This document shows, in pieces, positions 22,375 through 26,571 of a stretch of 64,000 nucleotides of DNA. Position 1 is the first letter of the stretch. Each line of letters begins with the position of its first letter. The notes beneath the pieces were generated by a model that did no database searches, had not been told where the DNA came from, and saw only the letters and a program-made list of their open reading frames with translations. The stretch is from positions 160,001 to 224,000 of IMG/VR virus record IMGVR_UViG_3300028048_000001. The stretch is one strand, 5' to 3'. This DNA comes from a virus (Duplodnaviria; Caudoviricetes). The translations under genes and the position numbers were made by a program.

Positions 22375-22881
22375 TTAATTATATTTATATATTGGATTAT
22401 CAAGATCTATAGTATGTTTACAATCAAGAATTCTTTGATTTTTACTTCCTCTAAATTTAAGAGTTACATCTTTTAATTCTTCTATAAATCTACCATATAC
22501 TAAATAATCTACTAATTTAATAATTTCTTTTTTCTTTTTATCAATTCTTATCTCATCTATATTATATCCAGTAAATAACCAGAAAGTTTTTGTATCTTTA
22601 AACTCATATCTCAATCTTTCTAGTATTAATATTACTGAATCAATATTGAAATCTGCTAATGGTTCTCCTCCAAGAATAGAAATTCTTTTAATATAATTTC
22701 TTTTTCCTAGAGTAATAAATTCTTCTAAAATATCATCAGTAAATTCAGATCCTCCATATTCATACCATGTTTCAGGATTAAAACATCCTTTACAATGAAG
22801 AGGACATCCTTGAACAAATAATGATATTCCTATTTGTGAACCATTACAAATTTCAAATTTATCTATTCCAGCATATCTCAT
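22375..22881 (-). CDS. nrdG: Anaerobic ribonucleotide reductase activating protein (radical SAM)
   Basis: LFVQGCPLHCKGCFNPETW, LGGEPL, FRGSKNQR; probable start MRYAGI; directly downstream of nrdD. Confidence 0.95.
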   Translation of the reverse strand: MRYAGIDKFEICNGSQIGISLFVQGCPLHCKGCFNPETWYEYGGSEFTDDILEEFITLGKRNYIKRISILGGEPLADFNIDSVILILERLRYEFKDTKTFWLFTGYNIDEIRIDKKKKEIIKLVDYLVYGRFIEELKDVTLKFRGSKNQRILDCKHTIDLDNPIYKYN

Positions 22882-22898
22882 AATGAGCCTGCCTTTTA

Positions 22899-25800
22899 TT
22901 ATCTTTTCCAAGATTTAAGCATTTTTGAATGTTTATATCTCATATCTGCTTCTTGCTGTTTACCAAGATTAAATGATTTATGATAATCTCCAGTAAGATA
23001 TCCAGTAACTCTGCGAAGTCTTTGAATATCAGATGATCCACAAATTGGACAATTATCATTAATTTCATCAGTATATCCACAATTCATACAAGTATCAGAT
23101 GGAACATTTATTGCAAAATAAGGAACATCCTTATCCATAGCATAAATAATAATATCTTCTAATGCTTCAAGATTATTTTTAGCAGATGATTCTATTTCTA
23201 CATATGTAATACAACCTGCAGAAGAATATCCTGTTAATTGAGATTCTATATCAATTTTTTCAAAAGGATCAATTTCTTTCCATACAGGAACATGAATACT
23301 ATTCGTAAAATAAAGTTTATCTGATACATTAGGAATAGTTCCATATTTTTCTTTAAACTTAGTCATGGCAGTATATACTAATGTTTCTGCAGGTGTATAA
23401 TATACACCAAAATTAAGTTTATATTTCTGTTTAAATTCTGCACATCTATCTTTAAATAATTGTTCAATTCTTTTAGCTAATTCCATACCTTTTGGTTCAG
23501 TATGATCACATCCTATAAGAATTTGAAGAGTTTCTGCTAAACCAACTTGACCTAATGCTAAAGTTCCATGTTTAAGTGCAGATCTTGTATCTTTACCATC
23601 ATAACCAAGCATTACTTTATTACCATACATGAATTTAGCACATTCTGCTGGTTGAGCACAAATCCACTCAAATCTTTCAATCAATTCATCTTTAGCATCA
23701 TTAATATAATGATCAAGAAGATTCATAAATTCTTCAATAATATCAGAATTTTTCTTTAATGATTCTTCTTTTGCCATCATAGCGATAGTTGGCATAATTA
23801 CAGTAACAGGACAAATATTTCCTCTTCCATCTTTAGTTTGTGGATTAACATCTGGATCATGATTTATATCATAACCATTTACTGTCCTACACATTTTACC
23901 CTTTATCACTAAAGGAACTGACTATATCATCATTTAAATATGGGATTTAAATGTCCTCCGCTTCGAATATGTGCTTATCTCATATTCTACTCTCTTACAT
24001 TCATCAGAGATAGTCGATACACTTTCAATCAAGAATAGTAATTTTATTATCATTAATATTAATGATAACTCCCCATTTACTATATATACAATATTCAATT
24101 CTCTTGATTGCTTAGCACGGTCTCAACTTTAATAATATTTTATTATTGCATAAATAATAAAGTCCTAACCGTTAGCAGCTTATAATTAAGCTACACCCAT
24201 TAAGCATGGTTCAAAGGATTTTATATGGGCTGTAGTTCTAGACTTACCCATAGTTGCAAATTCTGTTTTTGGATCATTTGGATCATATCCAGCATTGCCA
24301 GACCAATCTACATTTGCATAATTAGGATATAATCGTTTAGCTGTACACTTAACAGCTAATTTAAATATATCATAATTAGGATCTCCTGGATGCTTATTAA
24401 TGCCATTTTTTAATTTATAAATACAACAAGGAAATATTGGAGTTCTATGAACTTCTCCAATTCCTTTAATAGATTCTTCTAAAAGAGCAATAGATATCAT
24501 TCTTCCTTCTGGAAGAGTACATGTACCATAGTTAATTGAGGAAAAAGGTCAAATGTTATCTTATAGACTTTTTATTCTATAATTCTTACAATTTCTTGTA
24601 AGGTCGGCGTACATATTCACCATGGTATTTTACTACTTTAGGTATGGGTACTCTTGGATGGATTATTATATTCTTCACCATCTACGCTCTACAATGTCAG
24701 TTTACCTTTTAAATTAAACTGATTATCTCGGTATTAACATAATATATTAAATTTAAATTAATATATCTTAGCCTTCACCGATTTTACCCAATTCATCTTA
24801 TATATTTCTATATAAGCGGCCACCAATTTAGCTGAGATAATTTTATTATCTTATAGACTTTTTATTCTATAATTCTGGAAATCGCTTTCATACTCTACAT
24901 ACCTTTATTAGTAGAGATACGTCTGTCAATTCAGACCAGTTTGGCATAAATTTTTACCCTCGTTTAACGTTAGGTTTGTCTGCGATCAACTCAGACTCAT
25001 ATAGTGCTATACACTATAGTATTCGACACTCGTGGGAGTATTATATTTATTCAACTCCTATGCTCTACAATACTAATTATCCTTACGTAATATAATTAGT
25101 TATCTCGGTATTGTCACAAATAATTTTATATTCTTCAAATTTTCTTCTTAAAAATAAATTTTGTGCAAAATTATATATATTATTTTGTGAGTTTTACCGA
25201 TTTTGCCGAATTAATCTAATATATTTCTATATTAGTGGGCCCTCATTTGACCCGATCTACTCTGCAGTGTGTTAAGATTATGGTACATGGCTTCTATAGA
25301 TTGATAAACTTCTCTTTTTGTCATATCCATAGCATAATTATATGCTTTAGAATATTTCTTATACCAATCATCTTCTATAGAAATTTCTTTAATATTTTTA
25401 TTAATAGGGTTTTTATATTTATCTATTAATTCTTCTTTATTTTCTACATATTTTAATCCATCTCTAAAATGTTTATTAAAGCTTTTTCTTACAAATGGAA
25501 CCATTGTCCAGTCGAGGTGCGTGGCACTAACTCCCATTACTCTTTATATTTCTATAAAGTCTGACTATATCTTCTTTATTCTATTGAATAAAGTCTCGCA
25601 CTTGGGTAATAGATATTTTATATCTACTATGTGGTCTTGATACCACTCCTACTCCCTTACATTCATCAGGGATAGTCGATACATTAAGGAAATAATACAA
25701 TATATTTATTTACTCTTTTTCTATAATTATTATTTCTAAAAGTTGAAGATTTCCTTAACACGGTATTACCATATCTATATTTATATAGACTTAGGCTCTC

Positions 25801-26571
25801 TTACCACTTTAATCTTTCGATTTGGTTGACCGTTAGCAATTTATTATAAAAATAAATCACACCCTATATCTATAGGTTCACGAGATTTTACTTCGGCAGA
25901 GTATATTATTTACCGAATTCCTCTAGACTTTGAATTTGAAATATAACTGCTACTAATTGAAAAGCAGTACTTACTGTCTGTGGAGGTCTAATATCATTTT
26001 TTGAATTTCCTTTTAATGCAAACCCTTTTTCAAATAACATATCAAAAGGAACACTCATGCAATTATGCATTCCTACTACATATCTGTCTAAATCATGAAT
26101 ATATACTATATTATTTCTATGATTATCAGCATGTCTTTTAGACATATATTCATCTAATGCTAATTCTTTCATTATAGCATTATCTGCTTCACCAATTCTT
26201 CCACCAAAACTTGCTTCATCTATATTAGCATTCTGATTTTGAACGTTAGACGCAGCAAGTTTTTCTTTAATAATTTTTCTAATATTTGACTTTTTTTCTC
26301 TTTCTTTAGTACGTTCATTTCTATAAGTAATATAAGCTCTTGCTACATCTTTTCTTACATCCATAAGAGCTTCTTCTACTTTGTCTTGAATTTGTTCTAC
26401 AGAAAGATTTTCATTTAAATCATAAATATTTTGTGCAATTTTTCCAGCTTCAATAAGAGCTTCTTCAGTGCATATACCATCTACAGCATTAAATGCTTTA
26501 ATAACAGCAGTTGATATTTTATTTTTATCAAATGATTGCATTGATCCATCTCGTTTTTCTACATAAAGCAT
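22899..26571 (-). CDS. nrdD: Class III ribonucleotide reductase, 5 exons: 26571-25912, 25534-25250, 24837-24830, 24549-24246, 23891-22899 (749 aa spliced)
   Basis: ATP cone; joined exons read EEFG|GVSATHLDW, LQSRSG|SQL|PFSSINYG, FATMG|CRT; C-terminal CxxC-CxxC and RRVTGYL glycyl-radical loop; frame preserved. Confidence 0.95.
23892..24245 (-). ncRNA. Group I intron 4 in nrdD (354 nt, no ORF)
   Basis: Exon ATGGGT pairs with GCCCAT; guide CTACA pairs with 3' exon TGTAG; P7 GACTA/TAGTC; terminal G. Confidence 0.9.
24550..24829 (-). ncRNA. Group I intron 3 in nrdD (280 nt, no ORF)
   Basis: Exon GCT pairs with GGC; guide GGT pairs with 3' exon ACC; P7 GCGTA/TACGC; terminal G. Confidence 0.87.
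24838..25249 (-). ncRNA. Group I intron 2 in nrdD (412 nt, no ORF, apparent terminal A)
   Basis: Exon GGGT pairs with GCCC; guide TGAGG pairs with 3' exon TCTCA; P7 GCATA/TATGC. Confidence 0.85.
25535..25911 (-). ncRNA. Group I intron 1 in nrdD (377 nt, no ORF)
   Basis: Exon TTCGGT pairs with GCCGAA (U.G at the splice site); P7 GACTA/TAGTC with AAGATATAGTC; terminal G. Confidence 0.9.

Follow-up and report, generated by a model that had tools for sequence, protein, structure and literature searches.

The nrdD gene of a rumen jumbo phage is very probably transcribed as one pre-mRNA that contains four group I ribozymes, none with an endonuclease. The gene was located on the minus strand, at 26571-22899, of a window of 64,000 nucleotides (nt) taken from IMG/VR record IMGVR_UViG_3300028048_000001 (positions 160,001 to 224,000); window coordinates are used throughout. 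The record is a complete virus of 274 kb with terminal repeats and 26% G+C, and gut metagenomes of cattle and sheep, drawn from 13 studies, contained DNA near-identical to the window. A reading of the sequence alone had described the locus as nrdD split by four group I introns without open reading frames (ORFs), two of them separated by an exon of only 8 nt. The split gene was confirmed at those coordinates, and its group I interpretation is backed by protein alignment, guide complementarity, covariation, relatives with single introns and one RNA joint.

Architecture of the split gene

Pieces of ORF similar to NrdD were spread over 26571-22899 on the minus strand, according to the ORF list and homology. 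Joining the five exons gave 2250 nt, which encode a protein of 749 amino acids (aa) with zero stops. This spliced NrdD aligned with Prevotella NrdD of solved structure (PDB 8p23; residues 4-740, E = 2.3e-109), and the alignment was gap-free at all junctions: EEFG/GVSA, SRSG/SQL/PFSSINYG and ATMG/CRT, where slashes mark exon boundaries. All class III NrdD hallmarks were present, namely the ATP-cone, the MGCR cysteine loop, a C-terminal RVTGY glycyl-radical motif and an adjacent nrdG. Thus, the four introns predicted by the sequence-only reading (377, 412, 280 and 354 nt) held at every coordinate, and the fourth was indeed directly before the active-site cysteine of the ATMG/CRT junction. Intron ORFs of at least 30 aa had no Pfam match in any of the four introns, in keeping with the claim that none encodes an endonuclease. 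The features were as follows:

25912..26571, minus strand: nrdD exon 1 (E1), aa 1-220, ATP-cone and N-terminal part; ends ...UUCGGU; an uninterrupted homologue aligns through the junction
25535..25911, minus strand: intron 1 (I1), 377 nt, family A; ends in G; guide 25892-25902
25250..25534, minus strand: nrdD exon 2 (E2), aa 221-315; ends ...AGAUCGGGU
24838..25249, minus strand: intron 2 (I2), 412 nt, family B; last nt A (24838); guide 25237-25245
24830..24837, minus strand: micro-exon TCTCAGCT, 8 nt; encodes Ser316, Gln317 and two bases of Leu318
24550..24829, minus strand: intron 3 (I3), 280 nt, family B; ends in G; guide 24819-24824
24246..24549, minus strand: nrdD exon 4 (E4), third base of Leu318 to Gly419; ends ...AUGGGU; covered by RNA contigs
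23892..24245, minus strand: intron 4 (I4), 354 nt, family A; immediately 5' of the MG/CRT cysteine; ends in G; guide 24224-24235
22899..23891, minus strand: nrdD exon 5 (E5), aa 420-749 and stop; glycyl-radical motif RRVTGYL
22375..22911, minus strand: nrdG activase, the next gene downstream, outside the split gene; Pfam Fer4_12 (6.5e-38) and Radical_SAM

NrdD was encoded by 80 IMG/VR loci with 65-72% identity in exon 5. In most of these relatives the gene was uninterrupted, which provides independent validation of the spliced reading.

RNA evidence came from assembled contigs of two metatranscriptome runs (X15 and X16) of one rumen sample. Contigs from both runs, approximately 99% identical to the window, joined 23891 to 24246 and thereby skipped exactly the 354 nt of I4. 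The X15 contig continued from E4 into I3; therefore, molecules exist from which I4 has been removed while I3 is retained. The I4-spliced contig from X16 stopped exactly at 24549, the I3/E4 boundary. Of the predicted splice junctions, then, that of I4 was seen in RNA precisely as drawn, and those of I1, I2 and I3 were unseen in the contigs. Another X16 contig, of 247 nt, was 99% identical over 25257-25458, and its match to the window broke off 7 nt short of the E2/I2 boundary; if a single nucleotide polymorphism of the strain had clipped the alignment, its 45 unplaced letters would equal in length 7 nt of E2 plus the micro-exon (8 nt) plus 30 nt of E4. This contig, and RNA contigs ending at 25912 or 24549, are suggestive of spliced forms and were not counted as evidence.

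Intron cores and occupancy among relatives

Within the first 25 nt of each intron, a guide was identified that pairs without break across the predicted ligated junction (4/4 introns). All four 5' exons ended in U facing a guide G, producing a U.G pair in P1. The pairings, with the number of shuffled controls that equalled them, were:

I1 guide ACUCU-GCCGAA, pairing with ligated exons UUCGGU/GGAGU, 11 bp (14/2000)
I2 guide UGAGG-GCCC, pairing with ligated exons GGGU/UCUCA, 9 bp (29/2000)
I3 guide GGU-GGC, pairing with ligated exons GCU/ACC, 6 bp (297/2000)
I4 guide CUACA-GCCCAUA, pairing with ligated exons UAUGGGU/UGUAG, 12 bp (7/2000)

The sequence-only reading had proposed P1 and P7 in each intron; P1 with its U.G pair, a contiguous P10 and P7 were found in all four. 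Sequence comparison resolved the introns into two paralogous pairs, family A (I1/I4) and family B (I2/I3). Their core helices lay as follows, all on the minus strand:

I1: P3 25880-25885 with 25594-25599; P7 25672-25677 with 25563-25568
I2: P3 25205-25210 with 25022-25027; P4 25196-25200 with 25105-25109; P7 25059-25065 with 24943-24948
I3: P3 24786-24790 with 24645-24649; P4 24777-24781 with 24728-24732; P7 24683-24689 with 24606-24611
I4: P3 24213-24218 with 23954-23959; P7 24010-24015 with 23920-23925

The alignment of family B comprised 10 members: I2, I3, the introns of L086, L092, L045, L067 and L031, and those of the Clostridioides phage phiCDKH02 and the Staphylococcus phages PT1-1 and SA2. 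Pairing of helices P3, P6, P7, P7.1, P9 and P9.1 was kept in nearly every member, and double changes were numerous; P3, P4, P6, P7 and P7.1 were paired in 10/10, and the sequence of P4 was invariant. The crossing of P3 and P7 constitutes the group I pseudoknot and was backed by compensatory changes. P7 took the form G(A)GC.UA with UA.GCC, in which the closing pair covaried between G-C and A-U and was followed by a bulged nt, while the guanosine-binding G-C (the second P7 pair) was invariant across the family, I2 included. Two family B introns occurred in other genes: that at L031:9973-10200, on an IMG/VR contig, interrupts another gene, and that at L100:1479-1680 splits the large terminase of SA2, for which two 'terminase large subunit' pieces are annotated.

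In family A, the 3' half read GUAUC-GACUAUC-(P7.1)-GAGUAG-(P7.2)-P3'-(P8)-AAGAUAUAGUC-(P9). Its P7 (GACUA with UAGUC) was identical to those of T4 and Tetrahymena, as was J8/7, and P3, P7.1, P7.2, P8 and P9 covaried; P4-P6 were assigned by eye only. Over the P7-P7.1 region, the I4 core matched the T4 nrdD intron at 28/30 bases. An alternative P3 beside GCUAA was rejected, being unpaired in I1 and in the site 4 relatives; the strand after AAAA(U/C) covaries instead. Between the 5' P3 strand and GCUAA-P4, family A carried two covarying hairpins (I1 25822-25879; I4 24150-24212), which were also present in L006, L010, L024, L025 and L008; in the T4 nrdD intron, UAAAA is all that occupies this interval. 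The second of these hairpins contained an endonuclease ORF in L008 and L012, an unusual placement.

Comparison of intron occupancy, which the sequence-only reading had recommended, revealed nrdD genes with zero to four introns, including forms with I2 only and with I3 only at the micro-exon site. Among the IMG/VR relatives, an intron was present at site 1 in L008, L060, L063-66 and L070, at site 3 in L045 and L067, and at site 4 in seven (L006, L008, L010, L012, L024, L025 and L075); two additional sites were also occupied. Closer relatives (L086-L097) were found by a search with the exon-2 peptide. Of these, L086-L091 had I1 and I2 and lacked I3 and I4, with an HNH gene situated inside I1 in a sister contig, while L092-L097 had I1 and I3 and lacked I2 and I4. 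A metagenome scan for the 5' end of I2 produced L102, where I2 is the sole intron and the exon blocks on its two sides are open, with 90-91% identity to the window protein. An exact-pattern scan of IMG/VR for the same 5' end found none, and no match was obtained when the locus was compared by megablast with 50,697 phage records.

The window I3 was 97% identical to the intron of L092, except for a 278-aa ORF in the latter. This ORF (L092:2244-3080, in the I3 homologue of L092-L097) occupies the P5 loop and had a weak match to LAGLIDADG_3 (E = 6e-4, below the cut-off); from the window I3, otherwise this very intron, the ORF has been lost by a clean deletion. At the equivalent place, I2 of L086 still has the remnant of an ORF, 51 aa long (L086:607-762). 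The introns of T4 nrdD (L105:2100-3110) and L052 lie near HNL/NTL, some 10 codons upstream of where I2 is inserted; three distinct insertion sites thus crowd into about 13 codons of the NrdD motif that is most conserved (window aa 305-318). Single in-frame stops were noted in two relatives, a TAG at L086:1509-1511, corresponding to a window Tyr (about aa 484), and a TAA at L092:968-970, corresponding to Glu67, where sister contigs L094 and L096 are intact. A nonsense mutation or an assembly error could account for either, and recoding is a further possibility for the TAG.

The micro-exon and the terminal base of intron 2

The sequence-only reading had the micro-exon supply Ser-Gln and two bases of Leu, and this was corroborated by the RSG/SQL/PF alignment and by the single-intron relatives. 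Its 5' edge is fixed because L086 and L102 carry I2 without I3, and its 3' edge because L092-L097, L045 and L067 carry I3 without I2. At this site, genes with I2 only read ...GGGU/UCUCA followed by G or A, and genes with I3 only read ...CAGCU/ACC...; the mature junctions from E2 to E4 are accordingly predicted to read GGGU/UCUCAGCU/ACCU. Within UCUCAGCU, UCUCA is the P10 partner of the I2 guide and GCU the P1 partner of the I3 guide, so the double role claimed for the exon is reflected in both pairings. The micro-exon is required for the frame and for the conserved RSG-SQL-PF motif, as in all homologues; skipping it gives GGU/ACC, a frameshift and an early stop, as had been anticipated. To our knowledge, no exon shorter than these 8 nt is known between group I introns in a phage or bacterium. 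In the window, the spelling UCU-CAG-CU (24830-24837) pairs 5/5 with the I2 guide, and this synonymous choice suits both guides; L092:2101-2108, which lacks I2, spells the same residues UCG-CAG-CU, which would disrupt pairing with the I2 guide.

These patterns are consistent with the following mechanism and origin. The gene would be transcribed whole, with each intron folding on a P3-P8 / P4-P6 core. The guide would pair with the end of the upstream exon (P1, with U.G at the cut) and the start of the downstream exon (P10), and two transesterifications would remove each intron, I1-I3 presumably by self-splicing, to leave an mRNA for the 749-aa NrdD. I1 and I4 would be paralogues and kin of the T4 nrdD intron, and I2 and I3 paralogues of a second family, I3 being a mobile intron of LAGLIDADG type that has lost its ORF. 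I2 would derive from a mobile lineage that ends in A, has the standard guanosine-binding pair and probably still ligates exons. Because relatives carry one or the other, I2 and I3 probably entered separately; two independent insertions 8 nt apart would have left the micro-exon between them. The order of splicing may be constrained, as the sequence-only reading suggested, the only hint being the RNA contig with I4 out and I3 kept.

I2 ends ...AAAAUUA/UCUCAGCU, its last base (24838) being A, while I1, I3 and I4 end in G; the sequence-only reading had overlooked this. A terminal G (omega-G) is almost universal in group I introns and is needed for the second step of splicing. The A aligned with the terminal G of other family B members (GAUAACAAAACUG in L067, GAUAAUAAAAUUA in the window), and the eight members beyond I2 and L086 all ended in G. 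It is no assembly error, because it is shared by L086-L088 and L102 (AAAAUCUA/UCUCA) and by a contig from DNA run X2, an independent sample, that was identical over 24557-24875. A second change was also specific to I2: the G just after the 3' P7 strand, otherwise invariant, was A. In Tetrahymena, the P9.0 partner of that position is the base preceding omega; in I2, an A-U pair replaces the G.U pair of P9.0. In addition, P10 of I2 has 5 bp, continuous with P1, compared with 1-3 bp in the sister introns. The long P10 and the A-U pair in P9.0 may aid ligation by I2.

Other readings of the 3' end of I2 were rejected. A 3' splice site at G24832 is excluded by an A at this position in L086, and one at G24850 would be out of frame in L086 and L102 (13 versus 12 nt there). 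A pocket switched to bind A through the P7 change from G-C to A-U was considered; however, the changed pair is the fourth of P7, two past the one that binds guanosine, and A-U likewise occurs there in L045, whose intron ends in G. A natural self-splicing Coxiella intron without omega-G was reportedly described by Raghavan and colleagues in 2007 (J Bacteriol 189:6572, as cited in PMC5423948); the terminal A therefore lowers confidence in the efficiency of I2, not in its group I membership.

Copies of I2 were approximately 97% alike in three lineages whose host exons were approximately 86% alike, showing that the terminal-A intron has spread between diverged alleles. A C-G to U-A double change in a peripheral stem of these copies points to selection on RNA structure. 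Relative to the relatives, dN/dS (the ratio of non-synonymous to synonymous substitution rates) was about 0.15, upstream and downstream of I2 alike. Between the window and near-identical strains, 19 of the 21 listed exon differences were synonymous third-position changes (p = 8e-8); downstream of I2 the figure was 16/18, which shows purifying selection on the exons there. Given that downstream variants are almost all synonymous and that the binding pair is canonical, I2 most likely still splices, and its productive splicing appears probable on these sequence patterns. A more specific proposition is favoured by a small margin only: that I2 is a mobile phage group I lineage ligating exons with a terminal A despite an ordinary G-C pocket, the long P10 and Watson-Crick P9.0 compensating, and that it does so beside a paralogue from which only an 8-nt exon separates it. 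If so, two ribozymes would act in turn on the same eight bases while avoiding the frame-shifting skip, which would arise if the I2 pocket used the terminal G of I3.

Alternatives, precedents and significance

Several observations weigh against four functional group I introns at this locus. Rfam scans of 4.5 kb returned nothing relevant, either at gathering score or at E<=10. When introns were scanned singly, RF00028, for which the gathering score is 50 bits, scored 25.1 bits for I1, 22.0 for I3 and 27.6 for I4, all sub-threshold, and did not match I2 at all; hence the Infernal check proposed with the sequence-only reading went against it, no intron reaching the RF00028 threshold. RF00028 was nonetheless the best family each time for I1, I3 and I4, with a full-length alignment for I3, and the T4 nrdD intron, as a control, scored 105 bits. 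The low scores may be caused by AT-rich insertions, that is, the two extra hairpins between P3 and P4 in family A and long P8 and P9 insertions in I2. The P1 and P10 of I3 have only 3 bp each, and its guide match alone was not significant given the shuffled controls. The spliced E1-E2 and E2-micro-exon-E4 junctions were unseen in RNA contigs, and no near-identical spliced peptide occurred among 5.8 billion proteins. The I4 joint could in principle reflect an I4-less DNA variant in the RNA library, an explanation weakened because known I4-less relatives are only 83-88% identical to the window, against 99% for the RNA contigs. Finally, L086, a carrier of I2, has an in-frame TAG downstream, and a terminal A would be expected to slow exon ligation strongly, from work on Tetrahymena and model ribozymes.

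The missing Rfam match at threshold would suit inert insertions that are not ribozymes, with the gene expressed in fragments or silent. This can be given almost no credence, and is already contradicted: an 8-nt piece and non-zero phases exclude separately translated fragments, the long-range helices covary, a portion of the core has the same sequence as in the T4 nrdD intron, and the RNA joint for I4 is exact. Different splice sites near the micro-exon, with I2 ending at G24850 or G24832, or with I2, micro-exon and I3 leaving jointly, would alter the protein motif. The first two would give I2 a terminal G, and joint removal recalls Twort and Coxiella, for which the skipping of exons of 23 and 34 nt, respectively, is mentioned in PMC10136302. 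Such sites are very improbable, because of the changes in L086 and L102 noted above and the frameshift that skipping entails, and since only the sites as drawn yield RSG-SQL-PF and match the guides.

The most serious alternative concerned I2 itself, and was still considered unlikely. Here, the terminal G-to-A change has crippled the intron by blocking ligation, so that nrdD is a recently inactivated pseudogene and the phage relies on host enzymes. The G at the end of eight other family B members, the established need for omega-G in the second step, the TAG in L086 and the failure to see spliced E2-E4 in RNA contigs or the protein search are all in its favour. It is opposed by a terminal A common to three lineages with exons differing by about 14%, by L102, which is open on both sides of I2, by the 16/18 synonymous variants downstream of I2 among near-identical strains, and by P1 and P10 at the junction, which are intact and unusually long. 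An nrdD spliced from a single pre-mRNA was therefore preferred to each of these.

Comparable arrangements are known elsewhere. In Coxiella burnetii, the 23S rRNA introns named Cbu.L1917 and Cbu.L1951 flank a 34-bp exon, and exon skipping is known, according to PMC10136302. There, likewise, two nearby group I introns surround a short exon and one reportedly lacks omega-G; however, the exon has 34 nt, the gene is a bacterial rRNA gene and the introns are of different subgroups, whereas in the window the exon has 8 nt, the gene is a phage protein gene in which frame matters, I2 and I3 are paralogous and two more introns are present. Closer in kind is orf142 of Staphylococcus phage Twort, which has three group I introns, a 23-nt exon and exon skipping (Landthaler & Shub 1999, as cited in PMC10136302 and PMC11878797). 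There too, several group I introns interrupt a protein gene of a phage, and two very similar IA-type introns surround a short exon; but the Twort exon is 23 nt long and its skipping has been shown experimentally, while the exon described here is 8 nt, its skipping would shift the frame, and it is known from sequence.

The T4 nrdD (sunY) intron resembles I1 and I4 in host gene, in its P7-P7.1 core and in the layout of P3, P7, P7.1, P7.2, P8 and P9. T4 has a single intron, with an endonuclease ORF (I-TevII), at another site near aa 305-307 of the window protein, whereas I1 and I4 have no ORF, possess two extra P3-P4 hairpins and score 25-28 bits with RF00028 against 105 for T4. In 'Jug' jumbo gut phages, group I introns break nrdD into up to four fragments, and their splicing is supported by metatranscriptome reads; these phages are 360-402 kb and infect Bacteroides, and neither a micro-exon nor an absent terminal G is reported in the sections available of that paper (PMC12880540). 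In placozoan mitochondrial cox1, a 1-bp exon lies between two group IB introns (PMC5436844). As in the window, this micro-exon was made by a second group I intron inserting beside the first; the setting is animal mitochondria and another intron subgroup, and 8 nt is hence no lower limit.

Every feature of a four-intron nrdD with a tiny exon and a terminal A thus has a precedent. Particular to this locus are an exon that is very short for a phage, paralogous flanking introns and a mobile terminal-A lineage. Natural controls exist in the I2-only and I3-only relatives and in those sister introns of I2 whose last base is G. The locus offers a test case for the choice of a 3' splice site without omega-G when the G pocket is unchanged, and for two ribozymes that share a substrate of eight nt without skipping. 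Standard Rfam scans overlook AT-rich phage introns of this kind. With zero to four introns in close relatives, nrdD documents how intron-rich phage genes are assembled.

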